Shown one piece after another: positions 10,801 through 40,331 of a DNA stretch of 64,000 nt; position 1 is the stretch's first letter; each line of letters begins with the position of its first letter. Location of the stretch: contig JBAXTU010000001.1 of assembly GCA_037130015.1 (NCBI GenBank), positions 5,153-69,152 of the forward strand, in the 5' to 3' direction. The notes under the pieces are model-generated. The model was given only the letters and a program-made list of their open reading frames with translations. It did not search any database and was not told where the DNA came from. The position numbers and the translations under genes were made by a program. This DNA is from a bacterium. GTDB lineage: Bacteria; Patescibacteriota; Patescibacteriia; 2-01-FULL-39-33.

Positions 10801-13800
10801 GGCATTGACGAGAAGACTCTTCAAATAGCTCCGGCTGGTGTTTATTATTATTTGGCTGATGAAGTTGAAAAAGCCAATGAAGGCAATGCTTGTAATGGTT
10901 CGGTTGATTTTGATAATGGTTGTATTTTAGTGAATAATCGCTCTAATATTAATTATTCTAGCTATTCAACTTCTACTAGATTCAAAGATTATTTGATTTA
11001 TGACACTGATAAAACCTATTTTAGCCAAATGCTAAATCCATCGCATCAAGCTCTGAGTCCGCAAATGGCTGATGACAGTGCTCAAAATAATTCTGACAGT
11101 ATTGTTAAGGTATCAAAAAATCGCCAATGTTCAAATTGGCTATATTGCAATACTTATCAAAAAAGCAATAACAGCGACATTAATCCAAGTTTTGGTAATA
11201 ATGACCACTGTCTGAGTATTGGCGCTTGTTCCTCGCTTGGTAGTAATGGTTCATGTAATCGGTCTGCTACTTTGGATAATTCAAGTTATTTTAGGGTTGG
11301 TAGAGATTCTAATAAGACTGGATATTCAATTTTAGGATTAGATGCCTCATCATCTTTTGGCTATATTGCTTTGTCAAAACTAAAACAGCAAGGAGCATCT
11401 ACTTTTGTTACAAACGGTGATTTTGAGCAATTGGCCAGTGAAATGACAACAGAGCCCATGGGTTGGTATCCATCAAATGGAAATTTGAAATGGGGAAGTG
11501 CACAATTTAGTATTGAAAGCGACCCCATGTATTTGCGCCAAGGCAATGGCTATCTTCGCTTGAATGGCATGTATATAGTAGATTCAGATGTTATTGATGT
11601 TCTTCCTGGTACAGAATATTATGTATCTGGCCTTATTAACACTCTTAATTTAAAGGGGAATGCCAATGTTGTTATTAAATACTTCAGTTATGATAAGGGA
11701 GGAGTGCAAGTGGTTAATGATAATAATTTAATTTCAATGAGTCCTGGTCAAGACTGGACAAAGTTTATAAAAAAAATAAACACAGTATCTGCTGTTTCTA
11801 TTGTTTTAAGAATACAGAATTTTGGTAGTAGTGTTGGTGGTTATTCCATGATTGATGCTATTGATATGAAGCCGGTTTTAGCTGATCCTGACGAAACCAA
11901 TGATTCAAATAAGCTTGTCAGAACTTGCCGTATTTATCCGAATGAAAATTCTCCGTCTTGCCAATATGTTGAAGGAAGTGTTTTTTATTATGGTCAATAT
12001 GGTTATTGTTTGGTGCCTGATCCTCTCAATCCAAGTGGTTGTCTGCAGTGGTGGCCAGTAGATGATATTAGAGGCGATGTGGCTGATGAAATTGGCTATA
12101 ATGAAGTAAGACCATTATATTATTGTGTAGAACGCAAAGTGTCAGACAAAGTGGCTTTTGGGGCTGGTGGAATTGTTAATGTTGATACCAAAAATTTACC
12201 AGAGAAAGGCAAGCAGTTTGCTCAGGTGATAGGAGTAAATAGCGCTGGCCAACAATTCAATACAGTAGATTTTTCTTCAATGGTTAGTAGTTATTTAAGG
12301 CCTCTTTTGCGTTATCCGTTTCTTCAGTCTGTCAGTTTTGCTGGTCTTTTTGGCGCTGTGGGAATGGACAAAAATTTATATCCTTTTCCTTTGCAAGCTG
12401 ATATGTATCCAGGCAAGGCCTGTCTTAATCCTGGTGGAATTTTTGGTCAAGCATTTTGTTTAGGAAGTGAGGAAGGAGGTCATTATACTTCTCTTACTAC
12501 CGGATCTTCTGGTGGAGGAACTTATTGTTCTATAATGTTTCCACATTGTAAAAGATGTTATATTGCTCCAACAGAGACTATTTTAACCGAGGACCCAACT
12601 TGTACTCCAGTATCAGAGACATCAGGCGAATGTGCAAATTGTGATTTGTCCAATCATCTCTCTTATAATTCAGCCGCCATTTGTGAAGAAACAGATAAAT
12701 ATAAAGAATGTGCGGCAAGTACAACAGCAATAATTGTACCTCCAACTCCTGATACTGATTGGTTGACTCTAATAAGTAATAGTTTAGGCAATATTATTAA
12801 TGGTATTGTTGATGTAGTTAACTTTAAGACTGGTATAGGAAAAGGTTCTGATGAATGGGGTGGTTGGGGAGTATTTGGTACGGCTTTTGGTGGTAATTCT
12901 GGAAAAGTACCCATTGGTGTTCCCATGAATTTTCATGCGGCCGCCGGTTTTAGTGTGACCGGAATGAATATAGCTGCTGGTGTGGCAAAGGCGGCTGGAA
13001 AAGTTGAAGTGTTTGGTTTTAAGCTTGGAGAGATTACAGATATGTTTCAGGGGTTCCATATGTTTGGTATGAAAGTGGTGACAGATGAAGATGCTGATTA
13101 TGCTAGTAAATTTACTGATCCTATACCTGGCATAAAAGGTGATGTTTTGGGTATAGTGTGGTTTTTGACCCAATCAGATGTGTATGGATCAGGAGTGGTT
13201 GGTTCTTTTACTTTGAATATGAAGGTGCCATATTGTTCAAAAATTGTGCGAGTGGTGACGGCTGGTGGCAAAAATAAAGCTTGGTTTAGTAGAGTACAAA
13301 AAGGGTCATCATATGTATCAACTGATAAAGATTGTTATAATCCTGCCACCAATAGGTATGAGATTGTATGTCTTAATCAACTTTTGAATCACCCAACAGA
13401 TTTGCCAGTAGGTCAATCTGATATTAAGTATGAATCTGATGCTCAAATTTTTGGAGCAGTTGTGCCATCTGGCATTTCTCAAAACCCACGATGGTGGAGT
13501 AGTCAAGGAGGATTTCCTTTATTTTATCAATTGCAGGACACTACTTTATCTTTTCCATATCAGCCACGTATGGGGCAACTACACACTGCTAGTGATCCAG
13601 AAAAAGGATTACAACAGTTATTTGCTAGAAGCTATGGTACATGGAAGTGGTTTTGGAATAAAAATGATTGTAATACTACTAATAAGCCTGATAACTCATG
13701 CTTTGATGCGGGCGGTTATTATATAGCTGATAATACTTCAGGCGCTGTCAATTGGAATTTGCCTACTAATCTTTGTGGTAGTGACGAACGGCCCACAGTA

Positions 13801-14211
13801 GGAACAACTTTTTGCTTGGTTAAGCCAAAAATTGATAATGTTAAAATAAATGATGATGATAGTGATATGCCACTTACGATTCATGGTCGCGGTTCAGTAA
13901 AATTATCTTTTAATGTTTTGGTGGAAAAAGATCAACTGCCGCTAAGTTCTTATGTTATTAATTGGGGAGATGAGGGAGGTGGAGAAAGCGGAATAGAGAT
14001 TTCCGGCGCCTCTTTGCGCAGTCGTAATGCCACCAGTTCCGAGGCTAATAATCAATTTGTTTTTTATCATAATTATGATTTTTGGCAAATGCAACAGCTT
14101 GGTGCTAGTTGCAGTGCTTTAAGTTGTTCTGCTGAAATAACAATTAATGCGACTGATAATTGGGGAGCTGTTGGTACTGGTAAGCCTATGAGAATTAATG
14201 TTTTACCTTAA
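4900..14211 (+). CDS. giant (3103 aa) Cys-rich secreted/surface protein with three CBM4_9-like beta-sandwich modules
   Basis: Single uninterrupted 9.3-kb ORF with an N-terminal signal-like hydrophobic segment and Cys density throughout. Three modules with the carbohydrate-binding NGDFE...W signature start near nt 7387 (NSGFNIDE...DGWEKG), 9130 (NTDFESGADSWQYG) and 11410 (NGDFEQL...MGWY). Gly-rich C-terminal region. Confidence 0.6.
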   Translation: MLNKLFSFIKNQSFKQLIAGFLLFLVMFFVPMMPVLAQSAVAITATQRAYDAALLDTAVKYGLVTMGLNAAYKICMNNDKGAKPDQPGPVKPESNTSGEDGSGFNYDDPYASAIPLEPTPAMNTDIQNLTNCMAESLKGNAVFTRAQIEADIKIRQSQTNESGMDKIFKDVFAAAWKNMWSQFSKRIAYDTASWLASGGKGQQPLFVTQGFGPYMLGVADESVGAFIDTIDKQYGVNLCAPNLQIQLLFKLGLNPNVPPVQCRFSKMITNWGSAINDASFTVNYNAYLSPSENDFGVFLKLQTGVIDEKNWALFQAALKLNTDNGWQDVQNFAKKILTPGSMVKELAMNSGGADINKFMEEQKVFTGTVVDFINTFAQTLVFKLFSNLQNGYFSNNSDSSSGNSLAGLNLTDLSGLFNSQSQPFIEGKAGAAGRLTGIFQAQDSAANPGPYDIINKLIFCSDTARKNPGPTDCVIDESFASGIRNRVFVKDLPDSIKKRRFAPSANDVTNPQLAFTWRNIEILRKYRIVPDGWDVAAQYLAKATGTYVTLNDLISCFDPNDNYTDYFAPWCEGMIDPFWILKASELFCRRQGYGATNLFFDAQDGTIQRNKYCSDEQQCIKEDYQGNCLAYGYCTEERRNWDFNATPCEPKYNTCQTVTSRLGGTNSYLKNTLDFRYCNAQNAGCRWYSATLNPVSNDWMHETSYYPSSDASSTLALTKCGEYGGCDVKGTGEQVGAWRSISPDYKVILGSPCLDTNNCKFTADDKCTIPYGGIKCLTGSSTWLTLGTSTMPGAETIYFNRQVQACDGSESGCSQFIRAVPGVGSNLIPNSGFNIDENNNNKPDGWEKGAHASHMTSTNGQVLVDYDAETIYATVISVKPNTRYVLSVYAAQTSTVSTSEARIETQLFESNDANISHNNVTGYGLKSIATNCTVSAGGNNYFGAEAKTTELIFKPAGTDPERSSCWFETPATAGQIGIKMFANDLLVPTGKQILISDIQLEEVAYGVEYPSSYTDYAPSQRPSNQLGYVKKAPDYYRCYTTSTFSAWPLNRNQLEKVLQQRRPECSAYAGVCIPEEVGCEAFTPVNKDPMVPGVATKADLCPAECLNYQTYRQSETSFLSPDERQFIANSNLKTCSASVAGCDEFTNIDEATRGGESREYYSKLKFCQKPASDDSDYFTWEGSDTTGYQLKSYRLKHSQTSSVDPTAPCTVLTYPTGSGGANACKDLITDGDARIALPSPLAGPVVKAGRLKDYLTHLNNDVITTSTDLNPLITTELHKYGLCAKQEVKGYYYFSDNGTPATTTDDSLVYTPINPDCREFYDDMGNVSYRLLYQTIMSTNNCYAYRRTQTQYSFLDAQNDCDNYQGYWDTTNNVCIYMAVPKGGRVCSATAVGCREYIGNRGNNVQNVLNTDFESGADSWQYGTLSAAATYPGGSSFSNKAASGQNFGQVIRNIYLSNNRSYTLSFWVRGGDIDGDFSLDSVRLLATSSMSGTNDYHSFFAVSSTQASEAGLSSQGVSSTLAVVEVNDQWRRYELGPVYVDWGGNQEYFSNTLELNIPTGKTIFIDNVILKEVNQNIYAIDNSWVTPFSCDNKIETPYGSSSTNPSFVYDSYNAVRDYPGEMVGCSAYRDRKNVVWNLKSFERLCRPDAIGCEALIDTYNSDSPFGITYNVGDQKGAEVKVPADSQIYMVNDKPFECKAENMGCGAYGLPNMTRYDETVGYNTIFLKNQPDRYNSDLCKSNELWCEQFQEQSKSVNSSFVYFKDPRGKLCQYSIAGTSIDGLSNLGQWYEVNASTTCAVDYYQTIGVGNREEKKQPVGWWENDPANSNFGGESTRYATGWAGLCPPTQSSCTEYIDPLGQFYGNMIDTRLVSVEHKMSIALDADVLYVVSAKTVEYSAGTTTPNISVYCPGSKILSPDLSMQSPTGVGESISLDRNQFTTKEQVSGRFYLISTNNYTSFNCTVSYSPGIDEKTLQIAPAGVYYYLADEVEKANEGNACNGSVDFDNGCILVNNRSNINYSSYSTSTRFKDYLIYDTDKTYFSQMLNPSHQALSPQMADDSAQNNSDSIVKVSKNRQCSNWLYCNTYQKSNNSDINPSFGNNDHCLSIGACSSLGSNGSCNRSATLDNSSYFRVGRDSNKTGYSILGLDASSSFGYIALSKLKQQGASTFVTNGDFEQLASEMTTEPMGWYPSNGNLKWGSAQFSIESDPMYLRQGNGYLRLNGMYIVDSDVIDVLPGTEYYVSGLINTLNLKGNANVVIKYFSYDKGGVQVVNDNNLISMSPGQDWTKFIKKINTVSAVSIVLRIQNFGSSVGGYSMIDAIDMKPVLADPDETNDSNKLVRTCRIYPNENSPSCQYVEGSVFYYGQYGYCLVPDPLNPSGCLQWWPVDDIRGDVADEIGYNEVRPLYYCVERKVSDKVAFGAGGIVNVDTKNLPEKGKQFAQVIGVNSAGQQFNTVDFSSMVSSYLRPLLRYPFLQSVSFAGLFGAVGMDKNLYPFPLQADMYPGKACLNPGGIFGQAFCLGSEEGGHYTSLTTGSSGGGTYCSIMFPHCKRCYIAPTETILTEDPTCTPVSETSGECANCDLSNHLSYNSAAICEETDKYKECAASTTAIIVPPTPDTDWLTLISNSLGNIINGIVDVVNFKTGIGKGSDEWGGWGVFGTAFGGNSGKVPIGVPMNFHAAAGFSVTGMNIAAGVAKAAGKVEVFGFKLGEITDMFQGFHMFGMKVVTDEDADYASKFTDPIPGIKGDVLGIVWFLTQSDVYGSGVVGSFTLNMKVPYCSKIVRVVTAGGKNKAWFSRVQKGSSYVSTDKDCYNPATNRYEIVCLNQLLNHPTDLPVGQSDIKYESDAQIFGAVVPSGISQNPRWWSSQGGFPLFYQLQDTTLSFPYQPRMGQLHTASDPEKGLQQLFARSYGTWKWFWNKNDCNTTNKPDNSCFDAGGYYIADNTSGAVNWNLPTNLCGSDERPTVGTTFCLVKPKIDNVKINDDDSDMPLTIHGRGSVKLSFNVLVEKDQLPLSSYVINWGDEGGGESGIEISGASLRSRNATSSEANNQFVFYHNYDFWQMQQLGASCSALSCSAEITINATDNWGAVGTGKPMRINVLP

Positions 14212-14276: not shown

Positions 14277-17087
14277 ATGCTTACACTCCGAAAAAAAATA
14301 TTTTTTTCGCTTAGCCTGTCACTGATTGTGATGGGTGGTGTTTTGGCGCCCATAAAGCCCAATGTTAATGTTTTTGACGGGCAGGTTGGTTTTTTGAAGA
14401 GTAATGTGGTGGTGGCGGATGGTGTTAATGATAACAAACCAGATTCAGGTGGAGTCGTCTCTAATTTTATTGGTTGGGTCTTATATTATGTGGCCACTTG
14501 TTTTGCTAAGCTGGCTGGGCTACTTATTCAAGTTATGGTAAATGTAGCGCAAAAAAATGATTTTTTGACCCAACCGATTGTGCTTAATGGCTGGCGTATT
14601 GTGCGTGATATTTGCAATAATTTTTTTATCATTATTTTGCTAGCCATTGCTATTGGCACAATTTTTCGCGTTTCAGCTTATCATTACAAACAGCTTTTGC
14701 CAAAATTACTGATTATGGCGGTCTTGATTAATTTTTCCAAAATGATTGCCGGCATTATGATTGATTTTTCACAAATGATCATGATGTTTTTTGTGTCTCC
14801 TTTTGCTGGTGATACTGGCCCTAGCATTATTTTGGGCAGTGTTGGTTTACATAAATTATATCAACTTGAACAAGCAGGACAAGCAAGCAGCGCAGACATA
14901 GGTAATTTAAGTTGGCAAATTATTTTTGGTTTGTTTTTTGCTATTATTTTAGCAGTAATTGCTTGCGTAGTGGTGGCTTGTATTACTATTATTCTTGTTT
15001 ATCGTATTGTTATGCTGTGGTTTTTGGTTATTTTGTCGCCAGCGCCATATTTGTTGGCCACTTTTCCCAAAGGCGAAAGCTATGCCAGTATGTGGTGGAG
15101 TGAGATTACCAAATATTTAGTGGTTGGTCCTGTCATGATGTTTTTTTTGTATCTATCTTTTTTTAGTGGTTATAGAGATGCGTCAGGCATTGATGATCAC
15201 ACAGCGTCAGCGTTAGTGGGCAGCACCCCAAGCGCTGTAGGAACATCTTTCGGCACTACCAATACAGCAGACACAGCAGTAAAGTCATCAATGATGCAAC
15301 CAGCAAATATATTTGATTTTATGATTATTATCGGATTAATGATTGGTAGTTTGGTGGCTGGACAAAAAACTGGCGTGGCTGGCGCTTCTTGGGCTGGCAA
15401 GGGAATTGGGTTGATACGTAGTACAGCCAATAAAGGAGCTAGTAAAGCCTTTGGCGGTTTGGTTTATAAAAAAGATAAAAATGGAAATAGAAGCGGTTTG
15501 GCTTTTAGAGCAGCCAGAAGCACGGTTGGCGCGGCCGGGGCCGGATTGGCTGTTCTTAGTAGTAAGGCAGGAAAAGCCAGTGGCATGGTAGATACCGGAG
15601 TTAAAGGCGCTGGCGTGGTTGGTGCTGCAGCCACAGCCGGAGCGCTTGGCTTAGGTGCGGTGGGTGCAGCACCACTCGCTATGGCCGCTGCAGTTGGTTA
15701 TGGTGGGTATAGAGGTATTAAAGCTTTAGCGCAAAGAATGACTAAAACTGGTCGTGAAAGCAGAAAAATGCGTCAGGATCTTATTAATGGAAGCTATGAA
15801 ACTGAGGATTATGTGCAGGCCAAAGATGAAGCCGGCAATCTTATTCCTGATAAATATGAAAAACAGAAAAGAAAGTTTAAAAAACATGAAAGTGGCATCT
15901 TTATGGAGATCAATGATAAAGGTGAGTTTATAGATAAAAAAGGAGAATTAATTGAATATAAAGAAAATTCTCAAGGCGAAAAAGAATGGGTGGATAAAAT
16001 AGGAAGCCCGGTGGATATATCGCATTTGGGCAATGCTCAAAAACATGATGCCAGTGGCAATGAAATTGGAGATTTAAAACCATCAAACAGAGTTTATTCG
16101 GCAGTCACCAAAGACGGTAAAATCAGTGAAAATTGGGAAACTTATATGGGTACATATTATGGCTCAGGAGCTGGCAAGGCCGCAGCAGCTAGAGATTCAG
16201 CCGAAGCTGATAAGATTTCAAAATTGGCCAATGATTATGGACACCTCAATGAAAGTATTTTACAAAAATTATTGACTACGGAAATAGATCAAGGCAAGAA
16301 AATGGCTATTGCTATGACTTTGGCTATCAAGGATGGATTTAAAGGTATGAATCTTAAAAATGGCCAAGATAAAGTAAAAGAAGCTAAAGCAGTTCTTGGC
16401 AGTAATGATGTTTTAATTAAAAAATTTAATGATGAAGTGGACAAAAAATTTGCTCATTTTAATTATAATCTAAACACGGCTAGTGGCCGAGCCACTTTTG
16501 GCAAACGCCGTGATGCTGGCAAAATTAATGATGTTATGGATTCGTCGGCTTACAAAGATCCTGGAGTATTAAAATCTTTGCAGGAAAATATGACCAGTGA
16601 AGAATATATTACACATATGAAGAAAGTTAAGAATTCTTCCAAAAATCATGAAAAATCTTTATTAACAGGCTTAGATGAAATGATAAAACAAGATGGCAGT
16701 ATTGTTGATACTAAAGATAAGGATAAAATGTCTGTTTCTCGTCGTGCTATGGCAATGATCTCTGGAGATTTAGCTAAAGCTATGCAGGGAGTTGATTTGG
16801 GTAATACGTCTCAGCTTGCTGAATCTAAAACAGCTATGAATGATTTCTTTAGTCGAGCTTCCAATAGGGAAATTGCTAATATTGATAATGATATATTTAC
16901 AGAATCAGAGGTTCAGAAAAAAATGGGTACAGGAACTACTACCCCCACTCATGCACATACCTTTATTAATAATGTTTTGCATGTAGCTGTTAATGATAAT
17001 ATGAATCAAAATGATGTTGAAAATGTTAGACGACAAGGAGGTTCTAATATCTTGGCTAGAAATTTAGCTATTCATGCAAAACCATAA
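14277..17087 (+). CDS. VirB6/TrbL-like polytopic T4SS channel protein with a long hydrophilic C-terminal extension
   Basis: Signal peptide, a periplasmic segment, then 5-6 TM helices (IIILLAIAIGTIF..., LLIMAVLINF..., IIFGLFFAIILAVIACVVVACITIILV..., WFLVILSPAPYLL...). Gly/Ala-rich linker and a roughly 550-aa charged tail. Same-strand neighbourhood with VirB3/VirB4-like genes. Confidence 0.45.
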   Translation: MLTLRKKIFFSLSLSLIVMGGVLAPIKPNVNVFDGQVGFLKSNVVVADGVNDNKPDSGGVVSNFIGWVLYYVATCFAKLAGLLIQVMVNVAQKNDFLTQPIVLNGWRIVRDICNNFFIIILLAIAIGTIFRVSAYHYKQLLPKLLIMAVLINFSKMIAGIMIDFSQMIMMFFVSPFAGDTGPSIILGSVGLHKLYQLEQAGQASSADIGNLSWQIIFGLFFAIILAVIACVVVACITIILVYRIVMLWFLVILSPAPYLLATFPKGESYASMWWSEITKYLVVGPVMMFFLYLSFFSGYRDASGIDDHTASALVGSTPSAVGTSFGTTNTADTAVKSSMMQPANIFDFMIIIGLMIGSLVAGQKTGVAGASWAGKGIGLIRSTANKGASKAFGGLVYKKDKNGNRSGLAFRAARSTVGAAGAGLAVLSSKAGKASGMVDTGVKGAGVVGAAATAGALGLGAVGAAPLAMAAAVGYGGYRGIKALAQRMTKTGRESRKMRQDLINGSYETEDYVQAKDEAGNLIPDKYEKQKRKFKKHESGIFMEINDKGEFIDKKGELIEYKENSQGEKEWVDKIGSPVDISHLGNAQKHDASGNEIGDLKPSNRVYSAVTKDGKISENWETYMGTYYGSGAGKAAAARDSAEADKISKLANDYGHLNESILQKLLTTEIDQGKKMAIAMTLAIKDGFKGMNLKNGQDKVKEAKAVLGSNDVLIKKFNDEVDKKFAHFNYNLNTASGRATFGKRRDAGKINDVMDSSAYKDPGVLKSLQENMTSEEYITHMKKVKNSSKNHEKSLLTGLDEMIKQDGSIVDTKDKDKMSVSRRAMAMISGDLAKAMQGVDLGNTSQLAESKTAMNDFFSRASNREIANIDNDIFTESEVQKKMGTGTTTPTHAHTFINNVLHVAVNDNMNQNDVENVRRQGGSNILARNLAIHAKP

Positions 17088-17102
17088 TAAATAGAAATTA
17101 AA

Positions 17103-18191
17103 ATGATTCAAAATTTTAAACAAAAATTCAATCAGTTGCCAAAAAATATTCAGGCTTTGTTGTCCCTTGATTATGGACGCAAGCTTAATATTTATTTGAT
17201 TGACAAATATAAGCTAAAAACAATTGATGACAAGGAGTCGTTGCACAATGTAGTGGATATGGTTTTTTTAGGCGAGATTAAAATTATTGATTTGCCAAAG
17301 TTTTTAGCTGATAATTTTAGTCTTAATTTGGAATTGGCCAAAAAATTAGCCGTTGATATTGTGGGACTAAGATGTTTGTCTGCCGGTGATTTTTTTGCCG
17401 GACAAGCCAAAAAGTTTATTTTGGATAATGGCGGACACCTAGAAGATTATGATAGATATATTTCTGACACTCAAAAAGCTTTAAAAATTGAAGCGACTGG
17501 CGGGGAAGTTGATTTGCCAGAAACACCAAGAAAAATTATTCCCGAGACTATTGAATTCCAAGATTTGCCACCAGCTCATGAAAAGAAAGGCATGTTGGAA
17601 GTATTTAAAAAAGGCGTAGTTGATTTTTTTGAAGTTGATTCGCCAGAAGTGTTGGAAATGATGGAAGATCTGAATAGGGAATTGGCCTTGATGCTTTTGG
17701 AAGATCAAGTTTTTAAACGCGAGCTGGAAGAAGCGCTTTATCTCAATGCTGATATTTTGACTACTAGCAGTTTATATTTGGAAGGCAAGCCGGTTCCGGG
17801 CACAGCCAGTAATTGGCTCAAGGATTTTTTGAAAAAAAGTGGTACGAGTTTTTTTGATAATGTGGTGCTGTCTGGCTATGTGGCCAATTCGGAAAATGCC
17901 AAAAAATTAGCAGATCATGACAAAAATAAATTAGCAAAACTGCTCACCTTGTATCGTAATATCAAATTTTTTCCAGGTTCCATGGGTAATGTGCCACCGG
18001 ACAATTGGCAAGTAATTCCGCTGGGTCGTCCGCGAGCAGAAGAAAAAAATGTTAGTGCTATGCCGTCAAAAAAAATTGCCAGCAATCCTTTGAAAAATTA
18101 TGATTTAAAAAATATGACACCGCTAGAAATCAGCGCTTTGCAAGAACAGTATGATATTTCAGATGAAGAAATTGAAAAGATGAAAAAATAA
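17103..18191 (+). CDS. hypothetical acidic protein (paralogue of the next ORF at the N-terminus)
   Basis: Shares an N-terminal motif (QKFNQLP..I...LS) with 18197-19666. No recognisable catalytic motif. Confidence 0.5.
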   Translation: MIQNFKQKFNQLPKNIQALLSLDYGRKLNIYLIDKYKLKTIDDKESLHNVVDMVFLGEIKIIDLPKFLADNFSLNLELAKKLAVDIVGLRCLSAGDFFAGQAKKFILDNGGHLEDYDRYISDTQKALKIEATGGEVDLPETPRKIIPETIEFQDLPPAHEKKGMLEVFKKGVVDFFEVDSPEVLEMMEDLNRELALMLLEDQVFKRELEEALYLNADILTTSSLYLEGKPVPGTASNWLKDFLKKSGTSFFDNVVLSGYVANSENAKKLADHDKNKLAKLLTLYRNIKFFPGSMGNVPPDNWQVIPLGRPRAEEKNVSAMPSKKIASNPLKNYDLKNMTPLEISALQEQYDISDEEIEKMKK

Positions 18192-18196
18192 TATTT

Positions 18197-19666
18197 ATGC
18201 CAGAACAAAGTTTGCAAAAATTTAATCAATTGCCGGCGGAAATACGGAATAAACTATCTTCTCCGTCTATGTTGGCTGTGGTCAAGCAATTGGAAGTGCA
18301 ATATGGCGTCAAATTAAATTTGGCTTTTTTGAAGTTGGCAGTTGGCGATTTGCGTCCCGGAGAATTCAATGATTATTTGCGTGAAAAATTTAATTTGAAT
18401 AAAGATGTATCTGATATAATACGAGAACGACTTTCTAGGTTGTTGGTTGGAGTTGGTTTGACGCCGGTAGTAGCTGGAGTCAGTGGGGAGACTTCAAAAA
18501 ATCGTAGCGGTGAAGCTGGTTTTTCTTTTTCCATAGAAGATGACGCCGATGTCAGCCGTTTTAAGGATTTGGAATCAACAGAAATTAAAATTAAAAATTA
18601 TGAAGCATTGGCTGAAAATGTTATTGCCGAATTTGGTTATAAAAATAAAGATGAATCTTTACGTACTAGATTAAAAAATTTGATCATGTCCAGGCTCAAA
18701 GATGTGCGTGATGAATTTGAACTCATAGAACATTTGAAAAAAAATAAAGAAGTGGGTGGCATGGAATTGGGCGAAGAAGAAATAGATAAATTATTAAAAT
18801 TAATTCGCCAAAGTCCTGACAAAAAAATTTCTGATCAAGTGATTTTACCAACGACTGAAACCAAAGTTGAAACAAAAATAGAATTTCCGGTCAAGAAAGT
18901 TGAACCGATTAAGACGCCAGCTATTACTTTGCAGGCAAAAAAACAAACAGAAACCCAACAGTATCAGTCGCCTAAAAATTTATCAGCAAAACCAGTTGAA
19001 ATAAAATCAACTCAGGAAAATACTCCCAGCATAGAAATGGAAGATGGTTTGCCAGTGCTCAAAATGCCGGAAGAATTGATGATTCCTCCACATGAATTGG
19101 ATTTGAAAAAAAGCCAGTCTCTAAGTGAAGATAAACCGATTGAAAAAAAACCTGATTATCAAAAAAAACCAGAGCCGACACTGCACGCCAAGCAATTGCC
19201 AGTGATTAATAATAACGCCAAACAACCACCGGTTATGATGGCGCAACCGGTGCCATATTTGGCAAAAAAATCAATGCCACCGAAATTATCAAAAATTAGT
19301 AGTAGTCGTCCGTCGCTTGATGATGTGAAATTTACTCCCAAGCTACAAGGCCCAATTGAAGAACTGAACAATATGACGCTAATTGATTGGCGACGATTGG
19401 GAGAAAAAACTGAAAGCCGAATAGCCAAGATAAAAGAAAAATTAAATTTATTGGAAAAAGATTCTTATGGCCGACGTTTGCAGGGAATAGAAGCTTGGAA
19501 TAAAAATGAAATTAATAAATTTTATCGTTTGCTTGGCCAGGAAAGTTTGGTGAGCGGTCAAGAAGTGGAAAGTATTATTAAGGAGCGTTTAGAAAAAGGT
19601 TTGCCCACGCTTACTCTAGAAGAATTTCATTCGGTAATGGAGCTTAATCGTGATTTAAGATATTAG
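18197..19666 (+). CDS. hypothetical protein with Pro/Lys-rich central region
   Basis: N-terminus LQKFNQLPAEIRNKLSS is paralogous to 17103-18191. Low-complexity PK-rich middle. Confidence 0.5.
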   Translation: MPEQSLQKFNQLPAEIRNKLSSPSMLAVVKQLEVQYGVKLNLAFLKLAVGDLRPGEFNDYLREKFNLNKDVSDIIRERLSRLLVGVGLTPVVAGVSGETSKNRSGEAGFSFSIEDDADVSRFKDLESTEIKIKNYEALAENVIAEFGYKNKDESLRTRLKNLIMSRLKDVRDEFELIEHLKKNKEVGGMELGEEEIDKLLKLIRQSPDKKISDQVILPTTETKVETKIEFPVKKVEPIKTPAITLQAKKQTETQQYQSPKNLSAKPVEIKSTQENTPSIEMEDGLPVLKMPEELMIPPHELDLKKSQSLSEDKPIEKKPDYQKKPEPTLHAKQLPVINNNAKQPPVMMAQPVPYLAKKSMPPKLSKISSSRPSLDDVKFTPKLQGPIEELNNMTLIDWRRLGEKTESRIAKIKEKLNLLEKDSYGRRLQGIEAWNKNEINKFYRLLGQESLVSGQEVESIIKERLEKGLPTLTLEEFHSVMELNRDLRY

Positions 19667-19689
19667 TTTATAAATATTAAATAGAAAAA

Positions 19690-20121
19690 ATGTATCAAGT
19701 TGTAGTGCCACAATTTTTGGATGTTGAAGATAAGGTTTTTGGGCCTATTACTATCAGGCAGTTTATTGAAATGCTGATGGGCGCTTTGTTGATTTTTATT
19801 TTTAATAAAATTTTTGATTTTTCTTTGTTTGTTTTGTCTGCTTTTGTCGTGGGAATAATTACCGGCGTGTTGGCTTTTGTAAAAATTAACGGTCAGCCTT
19901 TTCATGAATTTTTATTAAATTTTTTGGGCACTATAAAAAATCCCAAGTTGAAAGTTTGGAAAAAAATGTTTACTAAAGAAGAAATAAAAAATGCCTTGCG
20001 TCCTGCTGATTTTAAGGCAGCTATGCCTAATTATGTGATGCGTCAGCCTGTCACTTCTTCAAAATTATCAGAATTGTCTTTGATAGTTGATACGGGAGGA
20101 GTTTATCATGGAGAAAGCTAG
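19690..20121 (+). CDS. PrgI/VirB3-like small two-TM T4SS membrane protein
   Basis: 143 aa with N-terminal FGPITIRQFIEMLMGALLIFIF followed by a second helix, a PrgI/VirB3-like arrangement. Sits immediately upstream of VirB4, which is the conserved VirB3-VirB4 synteny. Confidence 0.4.
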   Translation: MYQVVVPQFLDVEDKVFGPITIRQFIEMLMGALLIFIFNKIFDFSLFVLSAFVVGIITGVLAFVKINGQPFHEFLLNFLGTIKNPKLKVWKKMFTKEEIKNALRPADFKAAMPNYVMRQPVTSSKLSELSLIVDTGGVYHGES

Positions 20122-20156
20122 GCTTAATTATTTAATTTTTAAAATTATTAAAAAAT

Positions 20157-20828
20157 ATGGCTGATAGAAAAGCGACAAAAAAAACTCCATCTGTACAAAT
20201 GTATTTGAATATTGCTGAAATCAGGGATAATGCTATAATTTTAAAAGAGGGCTCGCTCAGAGCGGTGCTTTTGGTGTCTAGTATTAATTTTGCTCTCAAA
20301 GCCGAAGACGAACAAAATGCCATTATTTCAGGTTATATAAGTTTTTTGAATTCTCTTGATACTCCGTTGCAAATTTTGGTTCAATCTCGTGTTTTGGATT
20401 TGGATACTTATTTGGATAGTATTAAATCGGCTGAAGAAAAACAAACCAATGAACTATTAAAATTACAAACAGCAGAATATCGGCGTTATATAAGTGATTT
20501 AGTGTCGTTGGGAGATATTATGACTAAACGTTTTTATGTGGTGGTGCCTTATAATATTCTTTCCAATAAAAAAAGAAGCTTTACTAAGCGTATTGGTGAT
20601 ATTATTTCTCCAACTAGTGTTATTAATCTAAGTCAAAAACAATTTGCCAAAGAACACAAAGAACTTTTTATGATTGTTGATAAGGTTTTGTCGGGCTTGT
20701 CCAGCATGGGACTTCGCGCTTCTATTCTTGATACTCAGGCTTTGATTGAATTGTTTTATAATACTTATAACCCCACGGTTTCCCGCCGTGAAAAATTAAG
20801 CGATTTGTCAAAATTAAATTTAGAATAA
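20157..20828 (+). CDS. VirB4/TrbE/CagE N-terminal domain encoded as a separate ORF
   Basis: YLNIAEIRDNAIILKEGSLRAVLLVSSINFALKAEDEQNAIISGYISFLNSLDTPLQILVQSRV matches the VirB4 N-terminal (CagE_TrbE_VirB) domain pattern. Ends 7 nt before the ATPase ORF, which is in a different frame. Confidence 0.5.
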   Translation: MADRKATKKTPSVQMYLNIAEIRDNAIILKEGSLRAVLLVSSINFALKAEDEQNAIISGYISFLNSLDTPLQILVQSRVLDLDTYLDSIKSAEEKQTNELLKLQTAEYRRYISDLVSLGDIMTKRFYVVVPYNILSNKKRSFTKRIGDIISPTSVINLSQKQFAKEHKELFMIVDKVLSGLSSMGLRASILDTQALIELFYNTYNPTVSRREKLSDLSKLNLE

Positions 20829-20835
20829 TTATTTT

Positions 20836-22848
20836 ATGTTTGATCCTAATGAAATAAATAACACATCACCTGGCGCTCAGCCGTATATTCGTCCGGAGGA
20901 TCAGGTCAAAGTCACTTTGGAACAAAAGAAGCAATTAGAGCGCAATGAATCGTCTAATACCAAAGAAGTTTTAGAGGAAGAATTAATTTATCGCCGAGGT
21001 ATTGTTTCGGTGCGTGATTTGATTTCTCCGTCTTCTTTGGAAATCACTAGTTCTTATATTCATTTGGATGATAAATATGTGCGTACACTTTTTATAGTGG
21101 AATATCCGCGTTATATTTCGGTTGGTTGGTTTGCGCCAATTATTAATATGGATATTACAGCTGACATGTCTTTTTTCTTTTATCCCGTCAAGGCTCCGGT
21201 GATTTTGAAACAATTAAAAAAGAAAGTCGGCAATGTAGAAGCTGATCTTATTAGTCGTGCCGAAAAAGGAGCGCCTAGAGATCCTTTGCTTGAAACCGCA
21301 CTTCGTGATATGGAAAAATTGCGTGATGATTTGACCCAGGGTATTGAACATTTTTTTCAGACAGGACTTTATATTACTGTTTATGCCAAATCAATAGAGG
21401 ATTTGGATAGAAATTGTGATCGTGTAGAGAATTTTTTCGGTTCAACTTTGATATATTCCAAACGTGTTTTTTATCAAGCTGAACAAGGTTTCAATTCAAC
21501 TTTGCCTTTGGCTTTTGATGAGTTACAAATATTAATAAATGTGAATACTTCGCCGGCGGCCAGCTCGTTTCCGTTTGTTTCATCTGATTTGACATCTGAC
21601 CGTGGTATTTTGTATGGTATTAATCGCCATAATAATTCCTTGATTTTGTTTGATAGGTTTTCTATGCAAAACGCTAATATGGTGGTGTTTGCCACTTCCG
21701 GTGCTGGCAAATCTTATATTATTAAATTAGAAGTTTTGCGCAGTTTAATGTTAGGAGTAGATGTTATTATTATTGATCCTGAGCGTGAATATAAACATTT
21801 GTGCGATGCTGTGGGTGGTACTTATATTGATATTTCTCTTAATTCAGAAAGCAAGATTAATCCTTTTGATTTGCCTCGCGCCATGGGTGAAGATGCCAAG
21901 CCTGCCGATATTATCCGTAGTGCTGTTATTACTGTAAAAGGACTTATCCGTCTGATGATCGGCAATGTCACTTATGAAGAAGATTCTATTATTGATAGAG
22001 CGCTTTTGGAAACTTATGCCAAAAAAGATATTACGCCTGATGTTGATTTGACCAAAATTGAACCGCCAATTTTGTCTGATTTTCAAACTATTTTGGAAGG
22101 TATGGAAGGCGCGGAAAATATAGCACTTCGTCTAAAAAAATACACTGAAGGTACTTTTGCCGGGCTTATTAATAGTCCGACCAATGTGGAGATGGCTAAT
22201 CAGTTGGTTATTTTTAGTGTTCGTGATTTAGAAGATGAGCTTAAGCCGATTGCTATTTATACTATTGTTAATTACATTTGGAATGTGGTGCGCAGTGAAA
22301 TGAAAAAAAGAATTATGATTATTGATGAAGCTTGGTGGTTGATGCAAAGAGAAGATAGTGCTAAATTTATTTTTGCTCTTGTTAAAAGATGCAGAAAATA
22401 TTTTTTGGGAGTGACAACCATCACTCAAGATGTGAACGATTTTTTGACTTCACCTTATGGCCAGGCTATTGTTAATAATTCAGCTATGCAAGTGCTCTTA
22501 AAGCAAACGCCGGCAGCTGTGGGTTTGGTGCAAAAAACTTTCATGCTTACCGAAGGTGAAAAATATTTGTTATTAGAATCGTCTGTCGGAGAAGGCATCT
22601 TTTTTGCTGGTTCCAAGCATGCGGCCATTAAAGTAGTAGCGTCATATTCCGAAGACCAACTGATTACTTCTGATCCACGGCAACTTTTGGAAATTGAACA
22701 AGCCAAAAAAGAATTTGCTGAATCCATGAAAAATGAAGCAGAAGAACAGCCCGAAGAGGAGGCAGAAAAAAGTGAAGAAGAAAAGACTGATGAAACAAAA
22801 ACCGAAACACCAGCTGAGGCGGAAAAACAAACCGTCGCAAAAACATAA
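20836..22848 (+). CDS. virB4: VirB4-family T4SS ATPase (C-terminal ATPase portion)
   Basis: Walker A FATSGAGKSY and Walker B RIMIIDEAWWLM (the DEAW motif typical of VirB4/TraC). Length and order are right for the VirB4 C-terminal domain. Acidic C-terminal tail. Confidence 0.8.
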   Translation: MFDPNEINNTSPGAQPYIRPEDQVKVTLEQKKQLERNESSNTKEVLEEELIYRRGIVSVRDLISPSSLEITSSYIHLDDKYVRTLFIVEYPRYISVGWFAPIINMDITADMSFFFYPVKAPVILKQLKKKVGNVEADLISRAEKGAPRDPLLETALRDMEKLRDDLTQGIEHFFQTGLYITVYAKSIEDLDRNCDRVENFFGSTLIYSKRVFYQAEQGFNSTLPLAFDELQILINVNTSPAASSFPFVSSDLTSDRGILYGINRHNNSLILFDRFSMQNANMVVFATSGAGKSYIIKLEVLRSLMLGVDVIIIDPEREYKHLCDAVGGTYIDISLNSESKINPFDLPRAMGEDAKPADIIRSAVITVKGLIRLMIGNVTYEEDSIIDRALLETYAKKDITPDVDLTKIEPPILSDFQTILEGMEGAENIALRLKKYTEGTFAGLINSPTNVEMANQLVIFSVRDLEDELKPIAIYTIVNYIWNVVRSEMKKRIMIIDEAWWLMQREDSAKFIFALVKRCRKYFLGVTTITQDVNDFLTSPYGQAIVNNSAMQVLLKQTPAAVGLVQKTFMLTEGEKYLLLESSVGEGIFFAGSKHAAIKVVASYSEDQLITSDPRQLLEIEQAKKEFAESMKNEAEEQPEEEAEKSEEEKTDETKTETPAEAEKQTVAKT

Positions 22849-22868
22849 ATTAAATTAATTTATTTCTT

Positions 22869-23441
22869 ATGGACAATAGAAGAAGAAACATTATTATTGC
22901 TTTGGTGGTCGTATTTATTATTCTGATAGCCTTGATTTTATGGTTAATGTTGCGTAAGCCAGCTCCAGCGCCAGTGGTTTTACCTCCTGTTGTTGGTAGT
23001 ATTGATCTTGGTGCTGAATTAAATAATCAATTAAGCAATTTGCCATCTTCTTCGCCACAACGTTTGGCTCAGGAAAAGAATTATCCGCTTGGTTTGAAAC
23101 AATTGGCTTTTTCGTTTGCTGAACGACTAGGCACTTATTCCAGTGATGCTGGGCTTAACAATTTTATTGAACTTAGAAAAGATATGACGTCCAAGATGCA
23201 ATCCACGGCCAATCAAATGGCCGGAGCTGTGAAATTTTCTCCGAACACTTTTGAAAGTTTTGATACTAAAGCACTCAGTGCTAATTTGTTGCTTGTTGAT
23301 GCGGTGAGCGCTAAAGTGACAGTGAGTGTACAACAAAAACATACTATTGGCACCAGCACTTCAATGATTTATCCAAATTTGTCGCTTAGTTTTTTAAAGT
23401 CTGGTGATAAATGGCTAGTTGATACAGCGAAGTGGCAATAA
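22869..23441 (+). CDS. bitopic membrane protein (possible VirB8-like T4SS component)
   Basis: N-terminal TM (IIIALVVVFIILIALILWLML) with a roughly 150-aa extracytoplasmic domain. Lies between VirB4 and comFC and overlaps comFC by 10 nt. The VirB8 assignment rests on topology and position only. Confidence 0.3.
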   Translation: MDNRRRNIIIALVVVFIILIALILWLMLRKPAPAPVVLPPVVGSIDLGAELNNQLSNLPSSSPQRLAQEKNYPLGLKQLAFSFAERLGTYSSDAGLNNFIELRKDMTSKMQSTANQMAGAVKFSPNTFESFDTKALSANLLLVDAVSAKVTVSVQQKHTIGTSTSMIYPNLSLSFLKSGDKWLVDTAKWQ

Positions 23442-24136
23442 AAGAGTACAAAAGAATATTTTTAGATTTGTTATTTCCTATTTATTGTCTTGGTTGTAAA
23501 AAGGAAGAAAATTATTTATGTGATAATTGTCGTCAAACCCTAAAAATAAATGAAATATATTTTTGTCCTTTATGTGGTATTGAACAGTCTAACGCACGAG
23601 CATGTCTGACTTGCGAACAAAAATCATTTTTGGACGGTTTGTTGGTAGCGACTGATTTTAAACAGCCAATTGTTAATCAGGCCATTCATTTATTAAAATA
23701 TAATTTTGTCACTGAGTTGGTAGAAATTTTTGAAGAACCTTTGAAAAAATATTTGCAAAAAAATAAAGATTGGAATAGTGATTTTTTATTGTTGCCCGTA
23801 CCGCTTCATCCCAAGCGTCTGCGAGAAAGGGGATTTAATCAAGCTGAATTAATTTGTACTTTAATTAAAAAAATCAGTGGTAATGAATTAGCTCAGCCGT
23901 TGTTGCAAAAAATTCAATATACCAAACCGCAAGCCAAGGTGAGTCAGGCTCAAAATCGTTGGGCCAATATAAGTGGTAGTTTTGCTTATAATAATTTGGA
24001 ATTAACTATTGAAAAAATAAATATTATATTGGTTGATGATGTTTGCACTACTGGCGCCACCTTGCAAGAATGCGCCAAAATCTTAAAAAATAACGGTTGG
24101 AAAAACGTTTGGGGACTGACGCTGGCTAGGGGTTGA
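23432..24136 (+). CDS. comFC: ComF/ComFC-family competence protein (zinc-finger plus phosphoribosyltransferase domain)
   Basis: N-terminal Cys clusters CLGCKK..CDNCRQ and CPLCG..CLTCEQ. PRTase motif IILVDDVCTTGATL. About 230 aa. Confidence 0.8.
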   Translation: MAIKEYKRIFLDLLFPIYCLGCKKEENYLCDNCRQTLKINEIYFCPLCGIEQSNARACLTCEQKSFLDGLLVATDFKQPIVNQAIHLLKYNFVTELVEIFEEPLKKYLQKNKDWNSDFLLLPVPLHPKRLRERGFNQAELICTLIKKISGNELAQPLLQKIQYTKPQAKVSQAQNRWANISGSFAYNNLELTIEKINIILVDDVCTTGATLQECAKILKNNGWKNVWGLTLARG

Positions 24137-24178
24137 AAAAATGTTGGAAAGATGATAATATGTGGTAGAGGTTTACCT

Positions 24179-24268
24179 GGAGAGGTGGCTGAGTGGCTGA
24201 AAGCGACGGTTTGCTAAACCGTTGAGCGTCTTTTTGGCGCTCCGGGGGTTCGAATCCCCCCTTCTCCG
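24179..24268 (+). tRNA. tRNA-Ser (anticodon GCT)
   Basis: Cloverleaf folded by hand. Acceptor GGAGAGG/CTTCTCC, anticodon arm ACGGT-ttGCTaa-ACCGT, long variable arm GAGCG..CGCTC, T-arm GGGGG-TTCGAAT-CCCCC. No encoded CCA. Confidence 0.8.
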
Positions 24269-24282
24269 AAGATTTAAAATAG

Positions 24283-24369
24283 GGAGAGGTGGCAGAGCGG
24301 TTGAATGCGTCAGTCTTGAAAACTGAAGTCCCCTTAAAAGGACCGCGAGTTCGAATCTCGCCCTCTCCG
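24283..24369 (+). tRNA. tRNA-Ser (anticodon TGA)
   Basis: Acceptor GGAGAGG/CCTCTCC, anticodon arm TCAGT-ctTGAaa-ACTGA, long variable arm, T-arm GCGAG-TTCGAAT-CTCGC. Confidence 0.8.
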
Positions 24370-24415
24370 ATTGTAGATTATTTTAAATTAAAATTAAAAA
24401 GATATTTTTAAACCT

Positions 24416-24916
24416 ATGGAAGGTGACAAAAATCAAAACATGCAATTTGCCGAAGCTATTTTTGCTTGGCAATTTCCCGAGTACGAAAAATACCAAAAAA
24501 GTTTTTGGTGGTATGTAATCACATTGGTGGTTTTAATTTTTGCCGTTTGGTGGCTAATTTTGGATCAAAATTATGTTTTTGCCATTTTCTTGGTTTTATT
24601 TTATTTGTTAGTAATTTTTTATGATGTCAGACAGCAGGAGATAGTTGATTTTATTATCACGCCTGATGGTTTTATGTTCGGCAAGAGGTTTTATGAGTAT
24701 AGGGAAATTTCTGATTTTTTTATTATTTATCAGAATAATGGCATAAAAAATTTGTATTTTGATTTTAAAAATCCACTCAAGGGCAGATTGATTGTGCCAA
24801 TAGATGGACAAAACGCCGTGGCCGTACGTGAATATCTACTCAAGTATATGCATGAAAATTTGGAACGTGAAGCCGAACCATTATCCGAGATTTTTCGCAG
24901 ACTCTTGAAATTTTAA
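24416..24916 (+). CDS. hypothetical small membrane protein
   Basis: 166 aa with two hydrophobic helices. Sits between tRNA genes. No recognisable motif. Confidence 0.4.
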   Translation: MEGDKNQNMQFAEAIFAWQFPEYEKYQKSFWWYVITLVVLIFAVWWLILDQNYVFAIFLVLFYLLVIFYDVRQQEIVDFIITPDGFMFGKRFYEYREISDFFIIYQNNGIKNLYFDFKNPLKGRLIVPIDGQNAVAVREYLLKYMHENLEREAEPLSEIFRRLLKF

Positions 24917-24953
24917 TTGTTTTGTGTTATATTTTTGTTGTTTAGTATTGTCT

Positions 24954-25027
24954 GTCCTCGTAGCTTAGCTGGATAAAGCGTCAGCTTGCGGAGCTGAAGA
25001 TCGCAGGTTCAAATCCTGCCGGGGACA
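24954..25027 (+). tRNA. tRNA-Arg (anticodon reads GCG)
   Basis: 74 nt. Acceptor GTCCTCG/CGGGGAC, D-arm GCTT-AGCTGGATA-AAGC, anticodon arm TCAGC-ttGCGga-GCTGA, T-arm GCAGG-TTCAAAT-CCTGC. Confidence 0.7.
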
Positions 25028-25072
25028 CAAGAAAAAGTTAAAAGTAGAAAGTTTATAAAGTTCATAAAGTCC

Positions 25073-27136: not shown

Positions 27137-27143
27137 TTTTTTG

Positions 27144-27171
27144 TTGACTTTTTATTTTTTAGTGCTATAAT
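27144..27171 (+). promoter_or_regulatory. sigma70-like promoter: TTGACT, 16-nt spacer, TGcTATAAT
   Basis: -35 at 27144-27149. Extended -10 at 27163-27171. Upstream of the DksA/TraR-like ORF. Confidence 0.5.
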
Positions 27172-27285
27172 ATATTATTATCAAGTTCTTTAGGCCCTTT
27201 TTACGGCTTTGGCTGAGAAAGGAGGAGTATGACTGGATTATTTTGATGAGATGGAAATAAACCAATAGACAAAGGATGAAAGAAT

Positions 27286-27501
27286 ATGGTAGCCACTAAG
27301 ACAAGGCCAGAAACAACAAGAGTCAGACGCAGTAAAACGGAAGTGGTTTTTTGTGAGACGTGCGACAATCCAATTGATCCGCGACGGGTTGATTTTTTGC
27401 AAAAATCGCAAATATCAGTTGTTAACTGTGTCACTTGCCAACAGCAAGAAGAAATGGCTGGTGCCACCACCAGAAGGCATATTAGACGCTCTTTTGAATA
27501 A
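27286..27501 (+). CDS. DksA/TraR-family C4 zinc-finger protein
   Basis: CETCDNPI...VNCVTCQQQ is a four-Cys zinc ribbon in a 71-aa basic protein. AAGGA Shine-Dalgarno 12 nt upstream. Confidence 0.55.
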   Translation: MVATKTRPETTRVRRSKTEVVFCETCDNPIDPRRVDFLQKSQISVVNCVTCQQQEEMAGATTRRHIRRSFE

Positions 27502-27526
27502 AAAGCGTTAACATCTCAAAAAAAAC

Positions 27527-27562
27527 GAGCAGTGAACCAAGTGTCACTGCTCTTATTTTTTT
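27527..27562 (+). terminator. rho-independent terminator
   Basis: Stem GAGCAGTGA/TCACTGCTC followed by TTATTTTTTT. Confidence 0.65.
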
Positions 27563-27571
27563 GTTTAAGAC

Positions 27572-27599
27572 TTGACAAATAAAAAAAATAAGTTATAAT
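27572..27599 (+). promoter_or_regulatory. consensus sigma70 promoter: TTGACA, 16-nt spacer, TATAAT
   Basis: Perfect -35 (27572-27577) and -10 (27594-27599) hexamers with 16-nt spacing. Confidence 0.55.
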
Positions 27600-27675
27600 A
27601 GAGACAGTTAAACAAGAATAGTTCTTTAATCAGAGTCAATTTGACCGCAAAAATAAAAAAAGAAAGGAGGCGGTC

Positions 27676-27873: not shown

Positions 27874-27890
27874 CTTGGTGTAACAACCCG

Positions 27891-40319: not shown

Positions 40320-40331
40320 ATTTAATAAAAT

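Follow-up and report, generated by a model that had tools for sequence, protein, structure and literature searches.

We analysed a 64,000-nt stretch of DNA from a Patescibacteria genome assembly (GCA_037130015.1, contig JBAXTU010000001.1), referred to below as the window, and in particular a cluster of type IV secretion system (T4SS) genes at positions 14277–24136 that runs into comFC. All absences reported for the window hold within these 64 kb. The cluster comprises eight open reading frames (ORFs) on the plus strand; gaps of 15, 5, 23, 35, 7 and 20 nt separate them, apart from one junction at which neighbours overlap by 10 nt. In order, they encode an extended VirB6/TrbL-like protein, two cytoplasmic helical proteins of 362 and 489 aa, a PrgI/VirB3-like protein, a TrsD-like protein, a VirB4 ATPase, a VirB8-like protein and a ComF/ComFC-family protein. 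The closely spaced, co-directional T4SS-like ORFs listed in a preliminary description of the sequence were recovered at the same positions, and an identical NCBI contig (GCA_964512275.1, CAZEHP010000032.1) carries the same gene calls, overlap included.

For comparison, we used the 80 best related loci (L001–L080) on contigs representing one genome per species. All come from metagenome-assembled genomes (MAGs) of Buchanan-, Falkow-, Magasanik- and Uhrbacteria (n = 80), groups placed in the class ABY1 by the genome table of a 2025 survey (PMC12102498). Gene presence across the loci was scored by tblastn for TrsD, PrgI, the 489-aa protein and VirB6, and families were followed by iterated jackhmmer searches; counts of gene order use the 71 loci with enough downstream sequence.

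Components of the secretion system

The motor of the system is encoded by two genes. The larger, virB4 (20836–22848, 670 aa), matches Pfam P-loop_TraG (E = 1.5e-30) as well as AAA_10 and CagE_TrbE_VirB, and its product scores 350 bits against the NCBIfam model conju_CD1110 (NF045971; cutoff 325). It is 72–82% identical to MAG proteins from Candidatus Buchananbacteria, Falkowbacteria and 'Patescibacteria group', and its close homologues are 600–661 aa long, mostly ~630–650. Profile score and identity to ABY1 proteins point to the monoderm, mating-pair-formation (MPF) type FATA/Patescibacteria clade of VirB4 (MPF_FATA). The smaller gene (20157–20828, 223 aa) matches NCBIfam TrsD (NF041427) at 3.6e-8, under the curated cutoff, and appears to be the equivalent of the VirB4 N-terminal domain. 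TrsD covers positions 98–265 of 894 in VirB4_plasma, 3–178 of 792 in TIGR00929 and 7–107 of 752 in CD1110, and VirB4 covers the remainder of the same three models (286–892, 238–726 and 180–730, respectively). A direct BLASTP comparison of TrsD with VirB4 gave no similarity; their kinship is seen only via the VirB4 family models. The TrsD–VirB4 pair was found in 80 of 80 loci, and the two are distinct ORFs in 79 of 79. Jointly, the two proteins tile the full VirB4 model, and their split is universally conserved. Of the two-ORF VirB4 in the preliminary description, the two ORFs stand, and a broken or pseudogenised virB4 was rejected because the split is conserved in all of those 79 loci.

Across the ABY1 loci, the median identity to the window is 71% for VirB4, 51% for RadA, 49% for RecG and 33% for ComFC. 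The high conservation of VirB4 fits a strongly constrained, probably essential motor.

When searched with T4SS profiles, VirB4 and the PrgI/VirB3-like protein pass family cutoffs and the VirB6/TrbL-like protein matches only below threshold. The PrgI/VirB3-like protein (19690–20121, 143 aa) scores 34.8 bits against Pfam PrgI (PF12666; gathering score 27), in agreement with its first annotation. It also matches TcpE weakly, has two transmembrane (TM) segments and was found in 77 of 80 loci. The 936-aa protein at the head of the cluster (14277–17087) reaches E = 0.008 and 16.4 bits against Pfam TrbL, under the gathering score of 25.9. It has about eight TM segments in residues 1–465, followed by a hydrophilic tail of ~470 aa. 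Its family, located upstream of virB4, was recovered from 53 sources by iterated search (52 related loci and the window) and from 49/80 loci by tblastn; six of 40 family members gave a weak, sub-threshold TrbL match, and no other family recurred. Compared with the PDB, the family profile gave solely coiled-coil and low-complexity matches through the hydrophilic tail. On TM count and gene position, we regard this protein with moderate confidence as a putative 'extended VirB6'; the earlier description of a VirB6/TrbL-like polytopic protein holds for topology and position, and not for profile score.

The gene that overlaps comFC (22869–23441, 190 aa), previously described as coding for a bitopic protein, combines an N-terminal TM helix with an NTF2-like domain. 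The predicted fold of its product matches PrgL, TcpC, TraH and TraM. A profile of the family produced TM-helix noise only against PDB sequences, and fold searches were needed to see the kinship. The family occurs in 77 of 81 sources by iterated search. We can say with high confidence that the gene codes for a protein with a predicted VirB8 fold, present in nearly all related loci, and this NTF2-type fold bears out its inclusion among the T4SS parts.

Two genes between virB6 and prgI encode cytoplasmic helical proteins of orphan families. The 362-aa protein (17103–18191) has no Pfam or NCBIfam match and no TM segment. The 489-aa protein (18197–19666) has no TM segment either, and its gene lies directly upstream of prgI in 70 of 80 loci. 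Its AlphaFold2 model (pLDDT 77.5) contains three confident helical domains (residues 1–90, 135–205 and 385–489) with disordered linkers between them. The 489-aa family comprises 2203 representative clusters at E ≤ 1e-3; it has no PDB sequence match, no Foldseek match in the PDB (best E 1.2) and no Pfam or NCBIfam match, and a cluster look-up of ten distant members gave no names or taxa. Compared pairwise, the 362- and 489-aa proteins have only an N-terminal motif in common (E 0.005). The paralogy proposed for them is seen at the profile level: jackhmmer started from the 362-aa protein recovers its neighbour at 1.6e-10, and 51 ORFs are common to the searches from both. The 489-aa protein represents a large orphan family linked to the T4SS, and the pair may be a T4SS part not recognised so far, perhaps an adaptor replacing the coupling protein.

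Pilin genes lie 6.4–9.2 kb from virB4 on the minus strand (29259–32004), in line with the VirB1/VirB2-like genes first noted about 6 kb away on the other strand. One (29259–30197) encodes a 312-aa VirB2-like pilin that matches T4SS_pilin (PF18895) at 5.6e-11 and 42.8 bits (cutoff 26.6). The other (30208–32004) encodes a 598-aa protein in which two VirB2-like pilin modules are fused to a C-terminal, VirB1-like SLT lytic transglycosylase domain, with matches to T4SS_pilin (6e-23, two stretches, 81.1 bits), TrbC (7e-8, 33 bits) and SLT (2.2e-11) and, in NCBIfam, to lytic transglycosylase and Mbov_0395 pilin-like models. Among the 18 sources with pilins captured (17 loci and the window), this pilin–pilin–SLT fusion occurs elsewhere only in locus L026. 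Both pilin genes weakly match the 'Mbov_0395 pilin-like' family of mycoplasma integrative and conjugative elements (ICEs), so that pilin-like proteins of monoderm-type T4SSs may extend beyond the Patescibacteria.

Read as a parts list, the VirB3, VirB6-like and VirB8-like proteins and the split VirB4 show the inner-membrane complex of a monoderm T4SS, accompanied by VirB2-like pilins and a cell-wall hydrolase. The pilins, the pilin–hydrolase fusion and a TolB-like propeller protein have their genes on the other strand at a distance of 5–10 kb. The profile matches to MPF_FATA-like components agree with the earlier classification as a monoderm-type module.

Profile scans of all window ORFs gave no relaxase, type IV coupling protein (T4CP) or integrase, as the preliminary description had noted for the first two. 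Nor were flanking repeats found, and the nearby relaxase and integrase that would have marked the module as part of an ICE are absent from the window. With neither a relaxase nor a coupling protein at its side, the system does not qualify as one of classical conjugation. GC content is even across the window, the flanks of the locus consist of housekeeping genes and tRNAs, and the order VirB6–(362)–489–PrgI–TrsD–VirB4–VirB8-like is kept throughout the related loci. The locus appears to be chromosomal core, vertically inherited, and not a mobile element.

The comFC junction and flanking genes

The last ORF of the cluster (23432–24136) encodes a 234-aa protein that we assign to the ComF/ComFC family, with a predicted N-terminal zinc ribbon and C-terminal type-I phosphoribosyltransferase domain. 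It scores 32.7 bits against DZR_2 (threshold 27) and 25.4 bits against Pribosyltran, just under 26.3; it also matches TIGR00201 comF over the whole model (1–190/190) at 7.5e-26, under the curated cutoff, and GntX at 1.2e-26. The reported 10-nt overlap with the virB8-like stop holds for translation from the GTG at 23432; an alternative start at a TTG 39 nt downstream would leave a 29-nt gap. Neither start has a clear Shine–Dalgarno sequence. A promoter and terminator scan, too noisy for operon definition, found no convincing terminator within 14277–24136. Since no terminator-like site lies between the genes, comFC and the T4SS genes are likely co-transcribed, and we infer that the virB8-like gene and comFC may be translationally coupled.

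Synteny across relatives, a check suggested in the preliminary description, shows comFC as the next gene after the virB8-like one in 43 of 71 loci; radA takes that position in 14 and a pilin or PD40 gene in 14. The projected spacing between the virB8-like gene and comFC has a median of 26 nt, is at most 60 nt in 31 of the 43 loci and is zero or negative in 10, and the −10 nt overlap recurs in several related loci. With this number of loci and this tight, recurring spacing, the adjacency of T4SS and comFC is not a quirk of one genome.

The other two arrangements differ from the first by the orientation of blocks. Where radA comes next, the block comFC–tRNAs–166-aa gene–recG > < radA has the opposite orientation; where pilin genes come next, a larger block that includes the pilin and PD40 genes is inverted (L064 and L078 compared with the window). 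The comFC context block is seen in both orientations across the loci. In the VirB4 tree, loci of the comFC-next form are widespread and paraphyletic, the pilin-next form makes up one clade and the radA-next form two. This pattern implies about three local inversions between the arrangements, and the wide, paraphyletic distribution of the comFC-next form makes it the probable ancestral state within the sample. Looking for inverted repeats that might mediate the block inversions yielded AT-rich chance matches only. The adjacency is not obligatory, because inversions broke it in ~40% of relatives and left the T4SS core intact.

Tight packing is not specific to the comFC junction in the window: an acyltransferase gene and ksgA, functionally unrelated, overlap by 11 nt, and all genes between 98 and 27136 run on the plus strand. 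A gene for a ClpC/ClpB-type ATPase also lies near the locus, as does ksgA. In the Firmicute Bacillus subtilis, radA adjoins clpC in the ctsR-mcsA-mcsB-clpC-radA operon, and for this reason part of the neighbourhood may be old housekeeping synteny unrelated to the T4SS.

Downstream of comFC, a context block of mixed orientation (24178–29256) holds two tRNA-Ser genes, a 166-aa membrane protein gene, a tRNA-Arg gene, recG (25073–27136, plus strand), two small ORFs and radA (27928–29256, minus strand). An Rfam scan of the window found three tRNAs and nothing else. Domain matches identify RecG and RadA, two of the three genes first said to bracket the locus; the third, a 'DksA/TraR' ORF at 27286–27501, has two CxxC motifs and no Pfam support at E ≤ 0.01. 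The small ORFs, located in 27144–27873 on the plus strand between recG and radA, code for 71 aa with a CxxC-x22-CxxC pattern and for 65 aa. Both stand behind near-consensus sigma-70-like promoters (11/12 and 12/12 matches), and a bidirectional terminator-like hairpin (27527–27552) separates them. The 166-aa protein (24416–24916, plus strand), encoded between the tRNA-Ser pair and tRNA-Arg, has no family match; its gene accompanies recG in 24 sources (23 loci and the window), in either orientation.

Next to the pilin genes, a gene at 32204–33448 (minus strand) encodes a PD40/TolB-like beta-propeller protein whose N-terminus carries a TM or signal segment; the protein matches PD40 at 9.8e-6 and the TolB propeller at 1.2e-11. 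Its family was found in 40 sources. The gene adjoins the pilin genes where these are captured, and in one arrangement (arrangement C) it stands directly downstream of the virB8-like gene. On the other side of the cluster, a 3103-aa ORF (4900–14211, plus strand) stops 65 nt short of virB6; its product has a TM or signal segment at the N-terminus and matches CBM_4_9 weakly. At least 10 of 52 loci likewise have a long ORF adjoining virB6, and 12 loci gave tblastn matches to the 3103-aa protein. It is possibly a giant surface protein, perhaps an adhesin, that forms a variable companion of the T4SS.

The full type IV pilus noted earlier is also present, with genes at 51–63 kb for PilM (51012), PilB (55079), a response regulator (56876), PilT (57275), PilC (58364), pilins and the prepilin peptidase PilD (60673). 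Directly upstream of this operon, five large ORFs occupy 38868–50950 on the plus strand (483, 780, 625, 1505 and 607 aa). They are essentially without family matches; only the 1505-aa ORF gave weak matches, to CBM_4_9 and NTTRR-F1. ComEC, ComEA and DprA were not found in the window.

A chromosomal T4SS and the meaning of its comFC neighbour

We interpret the region, with a probability of roughly 0.78, as the chromosomal T4SS of the Patescibacteria clade, derived from MPF_FATA systems and laid out in the ABY1 gene order, with the comFC adjacency as part of that inherited order. In such a system, VirB4/TrsD, docked on VirB3, VirB6 and VirB8, would drive the assembly of a VirB2-like pilus or conduit through the single-membrane envelope, and the SLT domain would open the peptidoglycan for it. 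The structure would mediate contact-dependent exchange with a host bacterium, by a route other than relaxase-dependent conjugation. Co-expression of comFC would follow from the gene order that ABY1 members have inherited, the genome being compact and its operons long and mixed, and ComFC would serve ordinary transformation together with ComEC and the type IV pilus and would not be a T4SS subunit.

In Saccharibacteria, the T4SS is essential for the epibiotic lifestyle (PMC10633639). Southlakia epibionticum, the single member of the Patescibacteria in which this has been addressed genetically, has a Gram-positive-like T4SS that lacks relaxase and coupling protein and includes an essential pilin array (Wang 2023, PMC10633639). 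Epibiotic growth of this species requires the T4SS genes; ComEC, ComF and DprA do not count among its fitness genes, and deletion of comEC abolishes transformation (PMC10633639). Several points weigh against our interpretation. These functional data come from Saccharimonadia and not from ABY1 (PMC10633639), and the VirB6 assignment falls below profile thresholds. The comFC adjacency is apparently ancestral in the sample and tight (≤60 nt in 31/43, with the −10 nt overlap recurring), and the presence of a DNA-processing gene, comFC or radA, as the next gene in 57 of 71 loci may reflect some selection for co-expression.

This last observation bears on the most prominent alternative, raised in the preliminary description from the link to comFC, that the module is a competence machine similar to Helicobacter ComB. 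The ABY1 T4SS would then take up environmental or host DNA across the single membrane, possibly by VirB4-driven pilus retraction, and hand single-stranded DNA to ComFC and on to RadA and RecG for recombination or nucleotide salvage, so that the operon link of comFC would be functional. The 43/71 loci in which comFC comes right after the virB8-like gene, often within 30 nt or overlapping it, fit this idea, as do the 14 further loci with radA in that place and the clustering of comF, recG and radA at the T4SS across ABY1 (PMC12102498). VirB2-like pilins are present, T4CP and relaxase are missing from the window as they are from H. pylori ComB (PMC12857230), and the same idea has been raised for Saccharibacteria because these cannot do without the T4SS but grow without their com genes (PMC11665869). 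However, the adjacency is confined to one class (PMC12102498) and has been lost by inversion in ~40% of relatives that retain the T4SS, and overlaps and co-directionality are general in this genome. The S. epibionticum T4SS is essential with ComEC, ComF and DprA dispensable, and its transformation depends on ComEC despite an intact T4SS (PMC10633639, PMC12857230). No VirB7/9/10 of the ComB type and no ComH analogue was found, and gene adjacency is the sole pointer to contact between ComFC and the T4SS. We consider DNA import of this kind unlikely, and the comFC junction is better explained as lineage synteny. An elaborated form of the idea casts the ABY1 T4SS as the monoderm counterpart of ComB, a pilus-bearing, VirB4-driven DNA importer whose cytoplasmic exit would be tied, by co-translation of ComFC with the VirB8-like protein, to single-stranded DNA handling by ComFC, RadA and RecG. 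It would supply nucleotides or genes to a cell unable to make nucleotides, with the 362- and 489-aa proteins substituting for a coupling protein. This form strikes us as quite unlikely.

Two other readings concern what, if anything, the machine transfers. It could be a pilus-only device like the Bartonella Trw system, a known precedent (PMC12857230), that displays variable VirB2-like pilins for adhesion to the host and translocates nothing. The divergent pilin modules (a 312-aa pilin and a double-pilin fusion) would suit such a device, pilin arrays are common in Patescibacteria (PMC12102498) and essential (PMC10633639), and the window holds no T4CP as substrate receptor. The organism, however, already has a full type IV pilus for adhesion and motility, and an extended VirB6 with two conserved proteins of the cytoplasm hints that the machine handles a substrate; the conservation of VirB4 beyond that of housekeeping helicases fits a demanding motor task and is not decisive. 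These points make the pilus-only reading improbable. The module could also be the mating-pair-formation part of an ICE whose relaxase, T4CP and integrase lie outside the window. VirB4 does exceed the threshold of the CD1110 conjugative-transposon family, and ICE and plasmid proteins of Firmicutes and mycoplasmas are similar to TrsD, PrgI and the pilins. Against this stand the lack of integrase, relaxase, T4CP and repeats in the window, the uniform GC content, the same chromosomal neighbourhood in 80 species-level genomes, and a VirB4 that is 71% identical across loci, above RecG and RadA. Relaxases, moreover, were detected in no more than 103 Patescibacteria genomes and seldom close to virB4 (PMC12102498). 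An ICE is extremely improbable.

Much of this picture is already in the literature. A 2025 survey (Quinonero-Coronel 2025, PMC12102498) describes a Patescibacteria VirB4 clade related to MPF_FATA, with TrsD as the most frequent partner, PrgI, VirB6 and VirB2-like pilins common, VirB8 matches almost only in ABY1 and relaxases rare. It also reports comF, recG and radA as common members of the T4SS loci of ABY1, 'suggesting a functional coordination' (PMC12102498). A 2024 PNAS perspective proposed the T4SS as a candidate route of nucleotide or DNA acquisition, by analogy with H. pylori ComB (PMC11665869), and a 2025 FEMS review holds that the essentiality of the T4SS cannot stem from interaction with ComEC (PMC12857230). 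The system, its missing relaxase, the ABY1 comF/recG/radA neighbourhood and the idea of DNA uptake have all been published previously. No T4SS before that of the Patescibacteria had been shown to be essential to its own carrier bacterium, and the ABY1 link to comF, radA and recG, a hint already in the literature, is one of few genomic hints about the cargo of the Patescibacteria T4SS. The window is a typical example of this known system and not a new clue to cargo. What we add is the quantification of the adjacency in 71 species-level loci and its tracing to about three inversions, the high-confidence VirB8-fold identity of the product of the gene before comFC, the universally conserved TrsD/VirB4 split, and a large, structurally unmatched family of T4SS-linked cytoplasmic helical proteins.

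Comparison with known systems

The most distant comparison is with the Ced system of Sulfolobales, which uses a VirB4-like ATPase with pili for DNA import. Unlike Ced, the locus described here has no CedA-like protein, and the weak generic P-loop match of VirB4 to CedB (E 4e-12, 45 bits) is so far below the cutoff of 700 that it indicates shared ATPase ancestry only.

H. pylori ComB has more in common with the locus: both lack VirD4, VirB11 and relaxase, and both have VirB2-, VirB3-, VirB4-, VirB6- and VirB8-like parts. Downstream of ComB, H. pylori also requires ComEC and ComFC (PMC10633639, PMC12857230). In contrast to the monoderm host here, H. pylori is diderm, and its ComB includes VirB7/9/10 and carries DNA across the outer membrane only; VirB9 and VirB10 profiles matched no window ORF, and no VirB7/9/10 parts are present. 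The comB genes are unlinked to comFC, whereas here adjacency to comFC is the only competence link.

Systems of the MPF_FATA type (PrgH-I-J-K-L of pCF10, Trs of pGO1, CTn2/CD1110 and mycoplasma ICEs) resemble the locus in the order VirB6–VirB3–(TrsD)–VirB4–VirB8-like, in a VirB4 above the CD1110 cutoff, in a VirB8-like protein with the predicted fold of PrgL, TcpC, TraH and TraM, and in having no outer-membrane core. They differ in that the locus has no relaxase, T4CP or PrgB adhesin, has VirB2-like pilins, and has its hydrolase fused to pilins and encoded away from the core. The locus also appears to be chromosomal, vertically inherited and highly conserved, and it includes two extra cytoplasmic helical proteins.

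The closest match is the Patescibacteria-clade T4SS itself (SEML1_0006–0019 in Wang 2023, and the ABY1 arrangement of the 2025 survey). It shares an MPF_FATA-related VirB4 with TrsD upstream, the PrgI/VirB3, VirB6-like and VirB8-like proteins and VirB2-like pilins, a chromosomal location without relaxase or T4CP nearby, and a neighbourhood with comF, recG, radA and KsgA. Nothing fundamental sets the window apart. Its particular features are the pilin–pilin–SLT fusion, the 3103-aa putative surface protein directly upstream, and pilins encoded on the opposite strand because their block is inverted relative to L064 and L078.

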